A DNA stretch of 22,489 nt from a virus. Taxonomy: Duplodnaviria > Heunggongvirae > Uroviricota > Caudoviricetes. Below the pieces are notes generated by a model that had not been told where the DNA came from, searched no databases, and saw nothing but the letters and a program-made list of their open reading frames with translations. The stretch is taken from IMG/VR virus record IMGVR_UViG_2778261450_000009, positions 1 to 22,489 of that record; one strand, written 5' to 3'. Position 1 is the first letter of the stretch, and each line of letters starts with the position of its first letter. This document shows, one piece after another, positions 1 through 5,732 of this stretch. The translations under genes were made by a program, and so were the position numbers.

Positions 1-519
1 CAGCAACCCCGGTATCAGTTCATCCAGCGCGGCTGCTTTGTTCATGGCTTTGATGATATCCCGTTTCAGGAAATCAACATGTCGGTTTTCCAGTTCCGGA
101 AAACGCCGCTGCACCGACAGGGGGATCCCGTCGAGAATACTGGCAATTTCACCTGCGATCCGCGACAGCACGAAAGTACAGAATGCGGTTTCCACCACTT
201 CAGCGGAGTCTCTGGCATTCTTCAGTTCCTGTGCGTCGGCCTGCGCACGCGTAAGTCGATGGCGTTCGTACTCAATAGTCCCTGGCTGGAGATCTGCCTC
301 GCTGGCCTGCCGCAGTTCTTCAACCTCCCGGCGCAGCTTTTCGTTCTCAATTTCAGCATCCCTTTCGGCATACCATTTTATAACGGCGGCAGAGTCATAA
401 AGCACCTCATTACCCTTGCCACCGCCTCGCAGAACGGGCATTCCCTGTTCCTGCCAGTTCTGAATGGTACGGATACTCGCACCGAAAATGTCAGCCAGCT
501 GCTTTTTGTTGACTTCCAT
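1..519 (-). CDS. nu1: Terminase small subunit Nu1, lambda-type; 3' end truncated by the window edge
   Basis: Reverse-strand translation from the ATG at 519 reads MEVNKKQLADIFGASIRTIQNWQEQGMPVLRGGGKGNEVLYDSAAVIKWYAERDAEIENEKLRREVEEL... to the window edge, matching lambda Nu1 as recalled. Absent from the ORF track because it has no in-window stop. The plus-strand ORF 79..618 is its antisense artefact. Confidence 0.9.
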   Translation of the reverse strand, partial: MEVNKKQLADIFGASIRTIQNWQEQGMPVLRGGGKGNEVLYDSAAVIKWYAERDAEIENEKLRREVEELRQASEADLQPGTIEYERHRLTRAQADAQELKNARDSAEVVETAFCTFVLSRIAGEIASILDGIPLSVQRRFPELENRHVDFLKRDIIKAMNKAAALDELIPGLL

Positions 520-539
520 TGTTCATTCCACGGCCAAAA

Positions 540-716
540 ACAGAGAAAGGAAACGACAGAGGCCAAAAAGCCCGTTTTCAGCACCTGTCGTTTCCTTTCT
601 TTTCAGGGGGTGTTTTAAATAAAAACATTAAGTTACGGCGAAGAAGAACGGAAACGCCTTAAACCGGAAAATTTTCATAAATAGCGAAAACCCGCGCGCC
701 TGCCGCCCCGTGGCAG
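540..716. other. cos site: cosB (three R-type Nu1-binding repeats, IHF-like AT-rich spacer) and a cosN-like cohesive-end site at about 697-708
   Basis: Minus-strand sequence upstream of nu1 reads ...CACGGGGCGGCAGGCGCGCGGGTTTTCGCTATTTATGAAAATTTTCCGGTTTAAGGCGTTTCCGTTCTTCTTCG...GAAAGGAAACGACAGGTGCTG...CTCTGTCGTTTCCTTTCTCTG..., closely paralleling the lambda left end as recalled. The 12-nt cohesive-end position reads GGGCGGCAGGCG here versus GGGCGGCGACCT in lambda. Confidence 0.8.
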
Positions 717-1060
717 GCCACCCCACCGGAAGGACCCGCACAAATGAGAGCGTTTATCATTAACATTTACAGATAAGATGACGTACATCATTGAAACGCC
801 ATTCAGCCATATACCGGCAGCATTCGTAGTTGCACTCCGTAACTCTGCGACTAAGGTTAAAAACATGGCCCTCTTTTGCCACCGGCAAATCTTCAATGGA
901 TTTCCCCTGCCGGTTTTTTATTTTCGTCGATGCATAACATTGCATTTACATCAATAGCGGCTATTGTCATTAGTATGTTGCATCAATGCATGGGTGGTAT
1001 TGGCGGTCTTCGCCGGCCGGTTCTGTGTAGCTGCTCCCTGTGACCGGTTTTTTATTTCTC

Positions 1061-1101
1061 ACATTACAGCATCCCCTCAGAGTGAAGGGCTGCTGTAATG
1101 T
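1061..1101. repeat. Perfect 11-bp inverted repeat (ACATTACAGCA / TGCTGTAATGT) with a 19-nt partly self-complementary spacer, immediately 3' of the 1105..1401 gene
   Basis: Read directly from the sequence. No U-tract follows on either strand, so it is not a canonical intrinsic terminator. Confidence 0.5.
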
Positions 1102-1104
1102 CTG

Positions 1105-1401
1105 TTACTCAGTAACTACCGCACCTTCCGGTAATTCCATACCGGCAAATACCGGACAACCAGGATGACGATCAGCTTCTGTTGCTTCCAGCATTGACTC
1201 ACCAAACCACTCCGTCGTGGCACGACCATCAGCTGCTTTGTAGTGGATCAAGTACTGGTTTTCGCCATCCGCATACTGCGCGCGGGCTTTAACCTCACCC
1301 CATTCATCACTGATGCGCATCTCCACCAGTTGAGACAACTCAAACTTAAACGGAACAGCAGCGGCACCAATTGCAACCGGTTTGTTTTCTGTTTTTTCCA
1401 T
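1105..1401 (-). CDS. Hypothetical protein (about 98 aa)
   Basis: ORF-track ORF 1105..1407 begins MMMEK. A GGAG sits directly before the three tandem ATGs, so the third ATG (1401) has the best spacing. Preceded by an intrinsic terminator. No function recognised. Confidence 0.55.
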   Translation of the reverse strand: MEKTENKPVAIGAAAVPFKFELSQLVEMRISDEWGEVKARAQYADGENQYLIHYKAADGRATTEWFGESMLEATEADRHPGCPVFAGMELPEGAVVTE

Positions 1402-1414
1402 CATCATCTCCAGA

Positions 1415-1441
1415 TATAAAAAAGCCCCGCATTTGCGGGGC
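1415..1441 (-). terminator. Rho-independent terminator (minus strand)
   Basis: Stem GCCCCGC / GCGGGGC with a 4-nt loop, followed on the minus strand by TTTTTTAT. Lies downstream of the 1464..1679 gene. Confidence 0.65.
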
Positions 1442-1463
1442 TACAAACAGGCATCACAGCCAG

Positions 1464-1679
1464 TTAGCTAAGTCCGACAGACATAAAATCATCACTACCT
1501 AAACGATGGGAACCATAACGAACTTCATACTCCCCATTCAATTCAGAGCGTTTAGACTTTGCGCCATCCTCCGTTGCATAAATGCCGACCAGATGCCAGG
1601 GTTTGTCACGTACTACAGCCCAACCAAGAACCCATCCCTGATTATCAGGATCAGCCTTCAGGTTATTTTCTACAAACAT
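1464..1679 (-). CDS. Hypothetical protein (71 aa)
   Basis: Internal ATG at 1679 (MFVENNLKADPDNQGW...) preceded by AAGGAG at about 6-nt spacing. The ORF-track start at 1709 lacks an RBS. Confidence 0.6.
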   Translation of the reverse strand: MFVENNLKADPDNQGWVLGWAVVRDKPWHLVGIYATEDGAKSKRSELNGEYEVRYGSHRLGSDDFMSVGLS

Positions 1680-1719
1680 AGTGTTCTCCTTTTGGGTACC
1701 CAGAGACATTCTATGTCAT

Positions 1720-1944
1720 TCATGAAACAGGCAACAACGTGGCCGTTACAATCCCCGCCATATTTGCGTTCAGATCACATTCAACAGAAATTTCTTCATC
1801 CGTGGCATCCACTTCATATGTCCGGGAATAACACTCCGTGCATTTACCACTGAAGATATCCTTAACCAGAACACGTCCACGCTGCAAAACCCTGAATGGA
1901 ATCGTTCCGTTAAAGGGCTTTACGGTTACCAGTAATCTCTTCAT
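1720..1944 (-). CDS. Hypothetical protein (74 aa)
   Basis: ATG at 1944 (MKRLLVTVKPFNGTIPF...) preceded by GGAGGGG. The longer ORF-track version has no RBS. Confidence 0.5.
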   Translation of the reverse strand: MKRLLVTVKPFNGTIPFRVLQRGRVLVKDIFSGKCTECYSRTYEVDATDEEISVECDLNANMAGIVTATLLPVS

Positions 1945-2117
1945 ATCCCCTCCGGATAAAAATGCCCCTTGCCGCCCGGGCTGTTGTTCAAAGTTCATCC
2001 TGATTCGGCAAGATTCAGAATGTATAAGACAAATTGGCACACACAGCAGAATTTCATGCTTTCTGGACACTGGCGCATCCTTCATTTTTCAGCGAAATAT
2101 TCTGCTCTTACGGGCGA

Positions 2118-2300
2118 TCAGCTCTGCAGACACTGTCGAACACCGTCGACAATTTCGCAGACCTGAGAAGCCGTATCGAAAAGCTGGCGCGCCTTATCCA
2201 GGCTGACGCACCCCACCAATAAAAAAGGCACCAGTATCGCTACCAGTGCCCATTTTGCCGCCGCTCGCGGCATTCTGTGTGTCCAGTGTTTTCGGCTCAT
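2118..2300 (-). CDS. Small lipoprotein (about 51-60 aa) with lipobox LLVGC; three Cys in the short mature part
   Basis: MSRKHWTHRMPRAAAKWALVAILVPFLLVGC|VSLDKARQLFDTASQVCEIVDGVRQCLQS: hydrophobic signal plus lipobox. Start may be the second ATG at 2273. Not proline-rich like lambda Rz1 and not Bor-like by recall. Confidence 0.5.
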   Translation of the reverse strand: MSRKHWTHRMPRAAAKWALVAILVPFLLVGCVSLDKARQLFDTASQVCEIVDGVRQCLQS

Positions 2301-2301
2301 A

Positions 2302-2415
2302 TCACCACCAACGCACAGCCCAAATCAGAACAGCGACCGCCACAAGGCGAATTGCAAAGGCCGCAGCCCTTGTCAAATCAAGGCTCGCGGGAGTTTCCAC
2401 TTCAATACCTTTCAT
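2302..2415 (-). CDS. Candidate 37-aa protein with a C-terminal hydrophobic segment, directly upstream of the lipoprotein gene
   Basis: Not in the ORF track (under 60 aa). Translated by hand as MKGIEVETPASLDLTRAAAFAIRLVAVAVLIWAVRWW; its TGA stop lies 1 nt before the lipoprotein ATG; GAGG about 9 nt upstream of the ATG. Confidence 0.3.
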   Translation of the reverse strand: MKGIEVETPASLDLTRAAAFAIRLVAVAVLIWAVRWW

Positions 2416-2504
2416 AATGGACAACCTCAAAAAGAATCTTTTATACTTTCCCACGAGGATTTTCTCCGTACTCACTACTCACAATTTCCTCTTTGACGTG
2501 AAAA

Positions 2505-2549
2505 CTAAAAACCCCGGACTGTTCCAGCAGCCGGGGTTTTGTTTTTTTA
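2505..2549. terminator. Bidirectional rho-independent terminator
   Basis: Stem CCCCGG...CCGGGG flanked by AAAAA upstream and TTTTGTTTTTTTATTT downstream on the plus strand, so a U-tract follows the hairpin on both strands. Confidence 0.65.
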
Positions 2550-2828
2550 TTTACTGCCCTGGGTGCGGCATCTGGCTATTTCATTCCTGGCTTTAGTGTC
2601 ACCGCGACAGATACAACGAACCGTGTCACCCGCCAGCGTAGTGATATAGGCCTCATCCGTTTTTTCCACCGAAATGCATGGCACATTTCCATCCCGGCAA
2701 TACTCCACCTGGGCAGCAAGGTGAGTGTTGCGCGGGTAAAATTCCAGGCGATACATATTCCCCAGAACATGCACTTCTTCAACCTGGCGCCCATCTTCCG
2801 TTACCGTGATTTTTTTCAGCGCGTACAT
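2547..2828 (-). CDS. Hypothetical protein (93 aa)
   Basis: ATG at 2828 (MYALKKITVTEDGRQVEE...) preceded by GGAGG at about 5-nt spacing; bracketed by terminators on both sides. No hydrophobic segment. Confidence 0.55.
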   Translation of the reverse strand: MYALKKITVTEDGRQVEEVHVLGNMYRLEFYPRNTHLAAQVEYCRDGNVPCISVEKTDEAYITTLAGDTVRCICRGDTKARNEIARCRTQGSK

Positions 2829-2857
2829 ACGTACCTCCGTTCTTTCGTTTTTTGAGC

Positions 2858-2884
2858 AATAAAAAAGCCGCTCATGGCGGCCCT
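2858..2884 (-). terminator. Rho-independent terminator downstream of the endolysin gene (minus strand)
   Basis: Minus-strand GCCGC-catga-GCGGC followed by TTTTTTATT. Confidence 0.6.
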
Positions 2885-2898
2885 GTATGTTTTGCAAG

Positions 2899-3276
2899 CT
2901 ATCGCTTCAATTGAAAATGTGGGCCGTCTTTAAGCGTCCGCCAGTCCCCGCCCCATTCGATGGCTGTTCCCAGCTCTGCGGCAGCCTGCTTAAATGCCTG
3001 CGCGATTTTCTCGTACAGAGGCCAGTCCCATGACACCTGGCTGCCAACCCAGGCAACAACATCCACCGCATCACCGGTCAGGTGGCGGCTGTTCATGGTC
3101 TGGCTTTTCCCTTCCGCGACCAGCTGTTTCTGGCGTTCTTTCGTGCGCAGCCCTTCCGTAATACCGAAATCAACCTCCGTCAGCTCCAGCGCACGGCGAA
3201 CGACAGCAACCAGCTGTGGTTTAACGCCCTCCAGATTCTTTTCGCTGCGACGACTGAATCTGAATTTACCCGACAT
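2899..3276 (-). CDS. Endolysin, peptidase M15-type (L-alanyl-D-glutamate / D-Ala-D-Ala peptidase fold)
   Basis: Contains SRHLTGDAVDV (SxHxxGxAxD) and a C-terminal GDWRTLKDGPHFQL motif typical of M15 endolysins. The ORF-track start is GTG at 3282; ATG at 3276 has GAGGTG upstream. The upstream gene's stop lies 2 nt before this ATG. Confidence 0.8.
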   Translation of the reverse strand: MSGKFRFSRRSEKNLEGVKPQLVAVVRRALELTEVDFGITEGLRTKERQKQLVAEGKSQTMNSRHLTGDAVDVVAWVGSQVSWDWPLYEKIAQAFKQAAAELGTAIEWGGDWRTLKDGPHFQLKR

Positions 3277-3278
3277 AT

Positions 3279-3554
3279 TCACCTCAATAATGGAAAGATT
3301 TTTGTGACGTTCCCGCGCGCGCGTATCACCAGCACGCAGAACAGCAGATTAAAAAACACTTCAAGCCAGCCCGTTGTTAACGGGCGACCACACAGATAGC
3401 TGAGGGGCGCAAAGGCATACAGCAGCATCAGCAGCCAGGCCAGCCATGACATCAGCGGTTTATGTCTGGAATCACGGCGACGATAAAAAAAGAGCGTCAG
3501 CACGATAACCGTGCTTAACACCACATTCAGTAATCCGGGAAGGTTACTTAACAT
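3279..3554 (-). CDS. Small membrane protein (91 aa, 2-3 predicted TM segments); holin or antiholin candidate
   Basis: MLSNLPGLLNVVLSTVIVLTLFFYRRRDSRHKPLMSWLAWLLMLLYAFAPLSYL... with a strong GGAGGAGG RBS. Sits immediately upstream of the endolysin and overlaps the end of the preceding membrane-protein gene. Confidence 0.6.
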   Translation of the reverse strand: MLSNLPGLLNVVLSTVIVLTLFFYRRRDSRHKPLMSWLAWLLMLLYAFAPLSYLCGRPLTTGWLEVFFNLLFCVLVIRARGNVTKIFPLLR

Positions 3555-3936
3555 TGCCGCCTCCTCCACCCCGCAGGCGGGAGAACAGGCCGGACACCAG
3601 CGATGCAATATCCTGCTGGTGGATGAACGAGAGAATCTTCACCGACACCACCGCCACCAGCACCGCACACAGTGCATCCGCCGATGTACCGTCATAACCT
3701 GTTTTTGATGCAATCCAGGCTGACAGCACATGCGCACCCAGCACGCCAACGATAAACGACACCAGAAAATGCGCCGCCACACGCCAGACAGAAATCTTCT
3801 GTGGTATCGTGGCCACAAACAGCGCCCCTGCGAATGCACCAAACACAATCCCGAAATCCGTTCCGGTAAACAGCCCGAATACCGTCGCCCCACCGAGCGC
3901 CGCGGCCGTGCCGGAACCGGATAAGGGTTCAGACAT
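3544..3936 (-). CDS. Membrane protein (about 130 aa, 3-4 predicted TM segments); putative holin
   Basis: MSEPLSGSGTAAALGGATVFGLFTGTDFGIVFGAFAGALFVATIPQ...; GGAG RBS before the ATG at 3936; Gly-rich C-terminus. First gene of the lysis cassette. Confidence 0.6.
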   Translation of the reverse strand: MSEPLSGSGTAAALGGATVFGLFTGTDFGIVFGAFAGALFVATIPQKISVWRVAAHFLVSFIVGVLGAHVLSAWIASKTGYDGTSADALCAVLVAVVSVKILSFIHQQDIASLVSGLFSRLRGGGGGNVK

Positions 3937-3950
3937 ACTTTTTCTCCTGT

Positions 3951-3976
3951 CAATAAAAAGGGCCACCAGCGGCCCG
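3951..3976 (-). terminator. Rho-independent terminator (minus strand) between the TerB-like operon and the lysis cassette
   Basis: Minus-strand GGGCC-gctggt-GGCCC followed by TTTTTATT. Confidence 0.6.
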
Positions 3977-4023
3977 TAAAAAACACCCTGTCAAAGGTAC
4001 CCGCAGATGCCTTTTGTTTGGTG

Positions 4024-4176
4024 TTATTCATATTTGTGCAGTAAAGGCCAGAGAACGACCATCACCATCGCCACCAGCACGCCATCAGCCAGCACCGACA
4101 TCAGCCGTCCGGTAAAATCCACTGCCACTACCAGAAACAGCAGGATGGCAGCCAGCACAAGGCGCGCACTTTTCAC
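4024..4176 (-). CDS. Candidate 50-aa hydrophobic protein, GTG start overlapping the TerB-like stop
   Basis: Not in the ORF track. Hand translation: VKSARLVLAAILLFLVVAVDFTGRLMSVLADGVLVAMVMVVLWPLLHKYE; GGAG 8 nt upstream of the GTG; ends just before the terminator. Confidence 0.3.
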   Translation of the reverse strand: MKSARLVLAAILLFLVVAVDFTGRLMSVLADGVLVAMVMVVLWPLLHKYE

Positions 4177-4598
4177 AGGTACTGCTCCAGCGGCAACTGC
4201 AGCGCCTGCGCAATTTTCTTGAGCTGTGCTTCTTCATCCGGACCAATGCCATCCTGGTCTGCAATATCCAGACACAGGCACAGCACATCAACCGCTTCGG
4301 CGGTTCCTGCCACATCAGCCAGTTCTCGCAAAGCCTGAGCATTCGCACTACGAGGCGATGCTTCATAACGGGCGCGGATATTCGCGCTCATCTGGGCAAT
4401 CTCACCGGAGAACGGCGCAAAGGCAGGAAGTGCTGCAATGGTTTTCTCCAGTACCGCAATTTCTTTCGCGTCACAGGTGTCGTCAGCGTATGCAATGGAA
4501 TACGCGCCCCAGACGGTCGCCTCCACCGCGTCGCGGTTCTCCATTTTCTTCACTTCAGTAATAGCCTTACGGGTTTTCTTTTTGAAAATACCAAACAT
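4173..4598 (-). CDS. TerB-like (tellurite-resistance TerB / DjlA N-terminal type) domain protein, about 141 aa
   Basis: ATG at 4598 with AAGGAAA RBS. Two copies of the TerB-like pattern (IAYADDTCDAKEIAVLEKTIAAL and CLCLDIADQDGIGPDEEAQLKKIAQAL). The ORF-track start at 4751 is an upstream extension without an RBS. Confidence 0.6.
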   Translation of the reverse strand: MFGIFKKKTRKAITEVKKMENRDAVEATVWGAYSIAYADDTCDAKEIAVLEKTIAALPAFAPFSGEIAQMSANIRARYEASPRSANAQALRELADVAGTAEAVDVLCLCLDIADQDGIGPDEEAQLKKIAQALQLPLEQYL

Positions 4599-4796
4599 CG
4601 TGACTTTTCCTTTTAGTGGGTGAGCCTCGCCCCGGGATGAGCAGCCCACAGAGAAAGTCACACTGACCATCCCGTAAGCTCCCCCCCTGAAAGGCTCTGT
4701 GGTTTTTTGATGTGCGCCGGGCGTGGCGCAGATATGAAAAAGGCCACGCACGTGCGCAGCCTGATAATTTTCTGAATCAGCGGAGTGTCAGCTGGT

Positions 4797-5420
4797 TTAC
4801 CCTTTCACTTCTGAAAGGGATTTTTTGCCAAACGTCACTTCATTCATTGACATAAGTATGCTGTCTTTAATGTATTCGCACACTTCATTAATTTTTGCGT
4901 TGGTATCCACATGCGAAAATGTCCTGGCCTGATAACCATCAACCGAAATCGTCATGTTGTCGCCATCAAGTAACAGAATACTCACTGTAATATTCACACT
5001 TACAGACTGGCGGGGATCATCATCAACAACCGTATATAAATTAAAAGTAACCCCATCCTGAAAATCTACCTGCAAATCCTCCGGTTTCTCACAACAACTA
5101 TCATGAGAAAGATAAACATAGGGATGGGAGTTACCGTCAATATCCAGCCATCGTGGTTTCGGCAATGCCAGTGAGTCTTCATAGGTCTTGACCAGCCTTT
5201 TTGCCATATCCCGCAGTCGCTGGATGTACTCCTGTCTGGCCTCCTGAATTTCAGCCTGCTTTTCCCGAATGTCTGCATATGTGATCACAGTCTCAATTCT
5301 CCTGTATACAGAAAAATAAACCATAATAATAGCCAACCGGGAAAAGATGAAAAATGCCATAACAGAACAGGCATTGCGCACGGATAAAAAAATGCCCGTC
5401 ATGAGACGGGCCCAAAGCAT
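4797..5420 (-). CDS. Hypothetical protein, start ambiguous (ATG 5420, ATG 5360 or GTG about 5288)
   Basis: Long ORF with a coiled-coil-like stretch (REKQAEIQEARQEYIQRLRDMAKRL) and an acidic beta-rich C-terminal part. The N-terminal extension is hydrophobic (MAFFIFSRLAIIMVYFSVY); only the GTG start has a clear SD (AGGAGA). Confidence 0.45.
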   Translation of the reverse strand: MLWARLMTGIFLSVRNACSVMAFFIFSRLAIIMVYFSVYRRIETVITYADIREKQAEIQEARQEYIQRLRDMAKRLVKTYEDSLALPKPRWLDIDGNSHPYVYLSHDSCCEKPEDLQVDFQDGVTFNLYTVVDDDPRQSVSVNITVSILLLDGDNMTISVDGYQARTFSHVDTNAKINEVCEYIKDSILMSMNEVTFGKKSLSEVKG

Positions 5421-5470
5421 TCATCGTATAAGAATTAGACAGCGTTTAATTGTATGGTTACTACCAGAAT

Positions 5471-5504
5471 GATTCGTCAGCCTGCAACGTAATTCTGACG
5501 AATC
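5471..5504. repeat. 10-bp inverted repeat GATTCGTCAG / CTGACGAATC with a 14-nt spacer, inside an ORF-poor region
   Basis: Read directly from the sequence. Confidence 0.5.
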
Positions 5505-5732
5505 ACAGACCCCGAAACAGGCAGCGACTCATTCTGATAAAAACCATCCGATGATACACAACGTTAACAATGTAAAAAACAGCACCGAAACTGTAATCAG
5601 TCAGATATTACAGAATGAAGAACAACAAAGGCGCTTGCAAAACCTGTTCTCCGCGAAACTCGCCAGTGCTGAAACGATATGCCTCATTTGTTTACCAGTG
5701 CGGGTAGCAGAAATTACCCTCACACATAAAAT

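Follow-up and report, generated by a model that had tools for sequence, protein, structure and literature searches.

The window analysed here is the whole 22,489-nt stretch of IMG/VR virus record IMGVR_UViG_2778261450_000009. It represents a phiP27-like lambdoid prophage of Escherichia coli with its late genes on the minus strand, and phiSTEC1575-Stx2k and phiP27, both Shiga-toxin phages, are the nearest phage records. Our analysis concerns the gene that closes its lysis cassette, which encodes a 60-amino-acid (aa) prolipoprotein. Judged from its sequence, this product is an o-spanin-like lysis lipoprotein, already catalogued on that ground, that lacks the partner by which a spanin is defined. 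It occupies the exact slot of Rz/Rz1 and appears to provide a conserved fourth function of the lysis cassette. Whether it acts as an outer-membrane lysis effector with no linked phage partner is, in our assessment, evenly poised. The small gene immediately upstream, encoding a 37-aa membrane protein, is an independent, optional and widespread 'pre-spanin' small inner-membrane protein gene of lambdoid lysis cassettes.

The two genes, and the parts of the lipoprotein, are arranged as follows.

2302-2415, minus strand: gene of the 37-aa small membrane protein (phrog_4493, E=7e-16)
2118-2300, minus strand: gene of the 60-aa prolipoprotein, the last of the P27-type lysis cassette (phrog_7528, E=7e-37)
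2208-2300, minus strand: signal peptide (codons 1-30) and lipobox L-V-G-C, read from the sequence, with Cys31 at 2208-2210
2121-2207, minus strand: mature part, the 29 residues 3' of Cys31, an amphipathic segment and then C48-x8-C57

A first-pass annotation had described two small open reading frames (ORFs) at 2118-2415, the second encoding a lipobox lipoprotein of 51-60 aa with three Cys. Both frames were recovered on the minus strand, 1 nt apart, and the lipoprotein proved to have the 60-aa start, with its Cys residues at positions 31, 48 and 57. The TGA of the 37-aa gene is followed by a single T and then by the ATG, at 2300, of the 60-aa ORF (MSRKHWTHRMPRAAAKWALVAILVPFLLVGC|VSLDKARQLFDTASQVCEIVDGVRQCLQS). 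PHROG labels phrog_7528 as 'unknown function'. The precursor combines a basic n-region, a hydrophobic core (ALVAILVPFLL) and the lipobox LVGC at residues 28-31, and the signal peptide is its only hydrophobic segment. In a 19-member family alignment Cys31, Cys48 and Cys57 are invariant, and Cys31 would be the acylated residue of the lipoprotein. Position -2 of the lipobox varies between V and A among homologues (LVGC/LAGC), which stays within the o-spanin lipobox consensus, [LVI][ASTVI][GAS]C (Kongari et al. 2018, PMC6139136). Behind the Cys, residue +2 is V, A or T and residue +3 is S or T, but never Asp. The sorting of lipoproteins by the Lol system depends on residue +2, where Asp means retention in the inner membrane, and because no Asp stands at +2 or +3 the lipoprotein is predicted to be sorted to the outer membrane. 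Many homologues have Thr, Val or Ile in place of Met10, whereas residues 1-9 (M-x-R-x-H-W-T-H-R) are conserved, and the 51-aa start was rejected for this reason.

Both small ORFs are genuine genes under strong purifying selection. The ratio of nonsynonymous to synonymous substitution rates (dN/dS) in the mature region of the lipoprotein is 0.14, 0.05 and 0.13 against three relatives, the alternative frames hold stops, and the Cys codons of this region switch between TGT and TGC with the residue retained. The 37-aa gene differs from its O157-type homologue at 24 of 111 nt, 19 of them third positions (dN 0.07, dS 1.75).

The position of the lipoprotein gene was surveyed in 89 lipoprotein-bearing sequences, namely 80 IMG/VR contigs, three GTDB genomes (the only loci that the GTDB genome scan yielded), several annotated records and the window itself; the 80 IMG/VR loci are closely related (at least 92% protein identity), and locus counts are not independent events. 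The order is invariant in all 89: holin or holins, endolysin, optional small ORFs, and the lipoprotein last. A lysis cassette lies upstream in every locus with enough upstream sequence. The gene directly upstream of the lipoprotein varies.

About 40 of 89 loci: the endolysin, with nothing between; gap of 14-15 nt in 36
30 of 89 loci: the 37/28-aa membrane-protein family; gap of 0-1 nt
12 of 89 loci: a different small hydrophobic ORF; gap of 4 nt in 11 and 8 nt in 1

Of the 90 sequences searched, 89 of them lipoprotein-bearing, 57 gave a match to an M15 endolysin and 29 to a GH108 endolysin. A divergent lipoprotein subfamily (~45-60% identity), present in Lelliottia and metagenomic phages, is preceded by one lambda-S-type holin (TIGR01594) and a GH108 or M15 endolysin, and there the lipoprotein gene abuts or overlaps the endolysin stop. 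The linkage is independent of holin type (three types, with either the PF16931 and PF05449 pair or the lambda-S type), of endolysin type (two) and of several unrelated packaging modules.

What identifies this position as that of a spanin is the comparison with O157-type prophages of E. coli, in which a class II holin gene is followed by lysozyme, the 37-aa gene and, after 1 nt, Rz (PF03245) with embedded Rz1 (PF06085). The window and the O157-type prophages share the junction ...CGTTGGTGGTGA-T-ATGA to the letter; what comes next is the lipoprotein in the former and Rz with its embedded Rz1 in the latter. Because the identical junction after the 37-aa gene leads to either the lipoprotein or Rz/Rz1, the lipoprotein can be placed in the spanin slot. 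The succession of 37-aa gene, 1 nt and Rz/Rz1 was also found in locus L003, and the loci with this order are L003 and L097-L102. In phages mEp390 and HK639, homologues of the window's holin pair are followed by a small two-component spanin (phrog_1026, 'Rz-like spanin'). Compared with the lipoprotein loci, they are apparently a case of modular replacement of one outer-membrane function by another. The first-pass annotation had proposed a displaced, atypical spanin-like unit made of both ORFs. The lipoprotein retains the spanin-like character, given its slot and its tight linkage to the lysis cassette, but it is not displaced, as the site downstream of the endolysin is the canonical spanin slot. 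The pairing with the 37-aa gene, and with it the notion of one unit, had to be abandoned, as this gene is missing from about two-thirds of the lipoprotein loci and precedes Rz/Rz1 in thousands of contigs.

The 37-aa product (MKGIEVETPASLDLTRAAAFAIRLVAVAVLIWAVRWW) has a C-terminal hydrophobic segment ending in RWW-stop, leaving ~16 residues outside it, and a GAGG stands 9 nt before the ATG. A 57-aa version with a GTG start, annotated in phiSTEC1575, was rejected; the 37-aa form has the Shine-Dalgarno-like GAGG and is the one annotated by most sources. The family is far commoner than the lipoprotein, with 90%-identity clusters present on at least 1000, 999 and 505 contigs in a homologue search that used the 57-aa GTG-extended ORF as query. 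A tblastn search of the 37-aa protein against phage records matched only its first 15 residues, in two records, and low-complexity masking of the hydrophobic part is suspected. Extremely abundant as it is, the protein is annotated only as hypothetical. An i-spanin has an N-terminal transmembrane domain (TMD) and a long periplasmic domain, whereas the TMD of the 37-aa protein is C-terminal; and because it co-occurs with a complete spanin, it is not a substitute i-spanin. It precedes whichever outer-membrane gene is present, and our guess is that it is an accessory or timing factor. More generally, lambdoid prophages and those of enterohaemorrhagic E. coli (EHEC) have one to three genes for small single-pass membrane proteins between lysozyme and Rz (phrog_4493, phrog_1115, phrog_3246 and phrog_4906 types), for example at 2510-3059 (minus strand) in L003 and at 2501-2614 in L097-L102.

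Our searches for a spanin or a partner of the lipoprotein were negative. The lambda-family Rz/Rz1 and the mEp390 spanin pair had no tblastn match in the window or in any lipoprotein locus. Between -900 and +1500 nt of the lipoprotein, no ORF combining one N-terminal TMD with 35 aa or more of hydrophilic tail was conserved across 88 loci. The 60-aa gene was the only lipobox ORF in a scan of the 22.5-kb window. Complete phiSTEC1575-Stx2k has one other lipobox ORF, of 138 aa and next to Q, which is not a u-spanin because it is without a C-terminal TMD. The earlier remark that no spanin genes adjoin the endolysin was thus upheld, and tblastn and the lipobox scan extend it to the whole window for spanins of lambda or mEp390 type.

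The lipoprotein has been listed before. In the survey of Kongari et al. 2018 (PMC6139136), PhiP27 has a 'separated' two-component spanin, with both subunits as singleton families and with a combined periplasmic length of 62 residues, the shortest in that survey. Its o-spanin, assigned by sequence criteria, is the 51-aa form of the lipoprotein (NC_003356, 20706-20861), and its i-spanin is a 64-aa ORF at 20348-20542. In our collection, the latter ORF (5399-5593 of the phiP27 locus L002, minus strand) has a TTG start and no PHROG family, and it lies antisense to a 90-aa ORF (5337-5609 of L002, plus strand) whose whole length matches phrog_36812. The 64-aa ORF is present in just 2-3 of the 89 loci, and the window does not contain it. 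On these sequence features the published phiP27 i-spanin is probably not a gene. The same survey counted 31 genomes in which a lipoprotein stands without a linked i-spanin, and it left open the mechanism in spanin-less phages (PMC6139136).

A profile search of 1.84 billion representative proteins placed 24 clusters in the lipoprotein family, and all members bearing organism names are from Enterobacterales. The mature peptide contains no Pro and has a net charge of -1 in the window and of -1 to +3 across the family. The best hydrophobic moment of an 18-residue helix is 0.50-0.66, which denotes moderate amphipathicity. The mature motif ...A-x-x-V-C-x8-C is kept in both subfamilies, and the divergent members carry different signal peptides but retain it. 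An AlphaFold2 (AF2) model of the family alignment is of low confidence (mean predicted local distance difference test, pLDDT, 67.5; predicted template-modelling score, pTM, 0.33). In its mature part (pLDDT 60-66) a helix extends to residue 44, and a hairpin at 47-58 would juxtapose Cys48 and Cys57. The Jpred entry tabulated by Kongari et al. 2018 (PMC6139136) gives the lipoprotein region as 83% helical; the two predictions of the mature region disagree, and both are of low confidence. The lipoprotein profile gave chance-level matches only against PDB sequences, and neither small protein matched Pfam (E<=0.1), NCBIfam or PADLOC.

The nucleotide sequence of the signal-peptide region carries a second signal. 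A pattern scan detected the following terminator-like sites.

2884-2854, minus strand: terminator-like hairpin directly 3' of the endolysin gene
2532-2504, minus strand: terminator-like hairpin and T-run after the 93-aa ORF
2251-2226 (stem) and 2225-2216 (T-tract), minus strand: terminator-like hairpin in signal-peptide codons 17-28, the strongest such site

The embedded hairpin has an 11-bp stem and a GCGA (GNRA-type) loop, with a folding energy of -17.6 kcal/mol and z = -2.0 for the 61-nt segment. Between the window and seven relatives, synonymous differences were seen at 5 of 59 identical-residue codons in the stem (codons 18-26) against 78 of 195 elsewhere, in comparisons that are not phylogenetically independent. 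In the Lelliottia-type genes the flanking V-G-C-V-S-L codons are all synonymously changed, whereas the stem keeps its sequence and the loop reads GCAA instead of GCGA. The L23P substitution of phiSTEC1575 turns a G-U pair into G-C and strengthens the stem. In one relative (L093) the stem is weakened, and more distant members have other signal peptides; the hairpin is therefore conserved but not universal. This hairpin may account for the signal peptide seeming more conserved than the mature peptide. No terminator was detected by the pattern scan between 2118 and the next gene downstream, no minus-strand promoter was detected, and Rfam returned nothing above gathering scores on 1-4200. The embedded hairpin may be an intrinsic terminator or attenuator, so that only Q-antiterminated transcripts would yield full-length lipoprotein mRNA and continue into the packaging genes. 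Of the first-pass description of a mini-cassette isolated between terminators, only the upstream terminator-like site (2532-2504) was found: none was detected downstream, the strongest hairpin lies inside the lipoprotein ORF, and the pair is not isolated, being the 3' end of the lysis cassette, split from the endolysin here by the 93-aa ORF only.

These observations suggest a model in which Q-modified RNA polymerase would transcribe the lipoprotein gene together with the other late genes, reading through the terminators including the intragenic one. After export, acylation at Cys31 and cleavage by signal peptidase II (Lgt/LspA/Lnt processing), Lol sorting would place it in the inner leaflet of the outer membrane, as an anchored 29-residue amphipathic peptide with Cys48 and Cys57 oxidised by DsbA. 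After holin triggering and peptidoglycan breakdown, the lipoprotein would destabilise the outer membrane, thereby finishing lysis in the stead of Rz/Rz1. Its mode of action may be a local disturbance of the inner leaflet, oligomerisation via its Cys residues, or the use of a host partner. What we infer for the lipoprotein is its lipidation, its sorting to the outer membrane, the state of its disulfides and the disruption of the membrane; as a peptide of 29 residues cannot bridge the periplasm, we do not presume fusion by the canonical spanin mechanism. In its fullest form the model would have a lone peptide of 29 residues, disulfide-stapled and lipid-anchored in the inner leaflet of the outer membrane, suffice for lysis; this would make it a third class of outer-membrane disruptor, next to spanins and the cationic peptide of phiKT, interchangeable with Rz/Rz1 at a fixed recombination junction and silenced off the Q transcript by an intragenic terminator. 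We put this full version forward only tentatively, as a possibility that is more doubtful than not.

The lysis role itself, drawn from sequence and position, could in our estimate go either way, and several points weigh against it. No experimental study of this lysis cassette was found in the literature. By our own estimate the mature peptide, at 29 residues (~4 nm if helical, ~10 nm if extended), is too short for the periplasm, and it has no Pro-rich region. Aligned to Rz1 by hhalign, the lipoprotein scored 14% probability over the signal peptide only, with no similarity beyond that. The cationic gp28 of phage phiKT, with which it is compared below by description only, differs from the roughly neutral (-1 to +3), lipid-anchored lipoprotein in charge. 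The partial record SerU-LTIIb (L095), which shares the holins and has a GH108 endolysin, was not among the matches when phage records were searched for the lipoprotein. The window excludes the structural genes, so that a distant spanin is excluded in relatives only and not directly here. Finally, spanin defects are visible only with divalent cations, a condition given in Kongari et al. 2018 (PMC6139136). Because of this requirement a phage could in principle dispense with an outer-membrane factor, and the lipoprotein could act otherwise in the envelope.

Several other explanations have to be weighed against a lone outer-membrane effector. The lipoprotein might be a true o-spanin whose partner is unlinked, either a distant phage type II protein, a holin or a host envelope-spanning protein. 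It is a lipoprotein in the right position with periplasmic Cys, and Kongari et al. 2018 (PMC6139136) list it as an o-spanin and allow unusual topologies and distant partners. However, the published phiP27 i-spanin has a TTG start and no PHROG family, lies antisense to a PHROG-matched ORF, and is rare (2-3 of 89 loci) and not in the window; no conserved candidate lies nearby, and 29 residues would add little to a periplasm span; as for a holin partner, the holin type varies, and in mEp390 and HK639 the holin pair of the window is found alongside a separate spanin. We regard an unlinked partner as unlikely. Much less probable still is the idea of the first-pass annotation that the 37-aa protein (type I, N-out) and the lipoprotein form a minimal two-component spanin. 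The genes are adjacent, 1 nt apart and translationally coupled, and a protein whose TMD is C-terminal could in principle be an i-spanin (Kongari et al. 2018, PMC6139136). Yet the 37/28-aa family stands directly upstream of the lipoprotein in 30 of 89 loci only, against 40 for the endolysin, the same 37-aa gene lies 1 nt before a complete Rz/Rz1 in very many prophages, and ~16 plus 29 residues leave only ~45 outside the membranes. Such a spanin has, in our view, a very slim chance.

A late envelope factor dispensable for lysis, serving receptor masking, superinfection exclusion or lysogenic conversion, would agree with the other envelope morons of this prophage, such as the porin at 7812-8975. 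The Llp protein of T5 masks the receptor and protects the progeny. The small size, outer-membrane type and conserved Cys of the lipoprotein presumably liken it to proteins of the Llp/Cor type. Nevertheless, the gene is linked to lysis, and not to tail or receptor-binding modules, across unrelated backbones; it has no detected minus-strand promoter and is coupled to the endolysin; the internal terminator would stop its expression from transcripts that are not antiterminated; and no PADLOC or Pfam match exists. The lysogenic-conversion or exclusion alternative of the first-pass annotation is thus improbable in the light of the lysis linkage, with no minus-strand promoter detected and no PADLOC match, and for the envelope factor as a whole our expectation is low, a shade below that for an unlinked partner. 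The lipoprotein could also regulate lysis (timing, anti-lysis or fail-safe) rather than act on the outer membrane, as a member of the lysis cassette and with the unexpected small lysis factor Lcc6 of phage LambdaSo as precedent. A 29-residue peptide anchored in the outer membrane cannot reach the inner-membrane holins, however, and the three holin and two endolysin types argue against a specific regulatory partner, which makes a regulator quite improbable, lower again than the envelope factor. Finally, the conserved element could be the RNA hairpin or terminator only, with the ORF incidental, in keeping with the strongly reduced synonymous change in the hairpin codons. The substitution pattern effectively refutes this reading: the mature region outside the hairpin has a dN/dS of 0.05-0.14 with many synonymous changes, the Cys codons alternate between TGT and TGC and so still encode Cys, the ORF retains its length with the other frames closed, and the divergent members retain the mature motif with other signal peptides. 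A hairpin with an incidental ORF therefore has a negligible probability.

The remaining features of the window are those of a lambdoid prophage.

1-519, minus strand: lambda-type Nu1 gene (PF07471, E=8e-101)
2547-2828, minus strand: 93-aa ORF between the endolysin and the small genes, Cys-rich (phrog_33497, unknown function)
2899-3276, minus strand: M15 peptidase endolysin (PF13539, E=6e-12; phrog_465 endolysin, E=3e-75)
3279-3554, minus strand: holin with three transmembrane segments (PF05449)
3544-3936, minus strand: putative holin, Phage_holin_8 (PF16931)
9156-9539: Q antiterminator, within the late operon of the window
15649-16338: CI-type repressor
right end of the window: integrase ORF

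Along the minus strand the late order runs from Q through porin, methylase and TerB genes to the PF16931 holin, the PF05449 holin and the M15 endolysin, and from there through the inserted 93-aa ORF, the 37-aa membrane protein and the 60-aa lipoprotein to cos and Nu1. In relatives the gene has 378 nt and carries the annotation M15 metallopeptidase. The 93-aa ORF, found in only ~10 of the 90 sequences searched and flanked by a terminator-like site on either side, looks like a moron-like insertion that splits the endolysin from the small genes.

Several features of the surroundings deserve mention in their own right. A full-length OmpC-like porin gene (7812-8975, plus strand; PF00267, E=1e-151) lies between Q and the DNA methylase, and lysogenic conversion would be a candidate role for it. 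Immediately upstream of the holins (4024-4598, minus strand) are the genes of a TerB-family protein and of a DUF3927 membrane protein of 50 aa. Upstream of their holins, phiP27 and phiSTEC1575-Stx2k have stx genes and tRNAs; the window has no tRNA genes. The phiSTEC1575-Stx2k record also has a second holin gene, of class II, upstream of the P27-type cassette (19848-20412) with no annotated adjoining endolysin, which may be the remnant of a replaced lysis module. In the SerU-LTIIb record, LT-IIb enterotoxin genes (2781-4752) lie downstream of the GH108 endolysin, at the site of the lipoprotein in its relatives. Record PP818812.1, named Actinobacillus phage vB_Apl-pPE4, is 92-95% identical to the lysis region of the window, an unexpected host attribution.

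The cassette is common. A 381-nt region matches 337 of 5,426 complete E. coli genomes, a relative of the lipoprotein is encoded on 266 IMG/VR stretches, and the cassette is carried by the Shiga-toxin phages phiP27 and phiSTEC1575-Stx2k, in which lysis is the step of toxin release. About 13-15% of the phages of Gram-negative hosts have no recognisable spanin, and their breach of the outer membrane is described as an open question of the field. The lipoprotein could provide a case of spanin-independent outer-membrane disruption that is tractable in E. coli, since amber tools for lambda Rz/Rz1 exist in K-12, and should a lone lipoprotein suffice, no smaller effector of outer-membrane lysis would be known. 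Our analysis also corrects the published phiP27 'i-spanin' entry, which is probably no gene, and draws attention to the 37-aa membrane protein, a member of lambdoid and EHEC lysis cassettes that is unstudied, strongly conserved and found very widely.

Among the known systems, the 37-aa protein resembles Lcc6 of the Shewanella phage LambdaSo in being a tiny single-pass membrane protein of a lysis cassette that is neither holin, endolysin nor spanin, a likeness by description only, as Lcc6 has 65 aa and acts at the holin step. The lipoprotein differs from Bor/Iss, Cor and Llp in having no Pfam or PADLOC match (Cor and Llp Pfam models unchecked), no detected promoter of its own, and a linkage to lysis. 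It shares with the u-spanin gp11 of T1 a single gene and an N-terminal lipoprotein signal in the lysis cassette, but the C-terminal TMD and the long beta-rich periplasmic domain of the gp11 type are absent, and 29 residues cannot join both membranes. With gp28 of phiKT, which is described as a cationic antimicrobial peptide disrupting the outer membrane independently of spanins in a phage without them, it has in common that both are short single-gene products in a spanin's stead. Closest are the o-spanins, such as lambda Rz1 (PF06085) and T4 PseT.2, likewise small outer-membrane lipoproteins at the 3' end of a lysis cassette. The lipoprotein has the lipobox signal, no retention signal, the lysis-cassette location and the periplasmic Cys48 and Cys57 of an o-spanin, whereas a cognate i-spanin gene and homology to PF06085 or another known family are wanting. 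Unlike Rz1, it is neither embedded nor overlapping, has a mature part of 29 residues with no Pro, and is predicted to be structured, and the C-x8-C near its C-terminus recalls the C87/C98 pair of T4 PseT.2.

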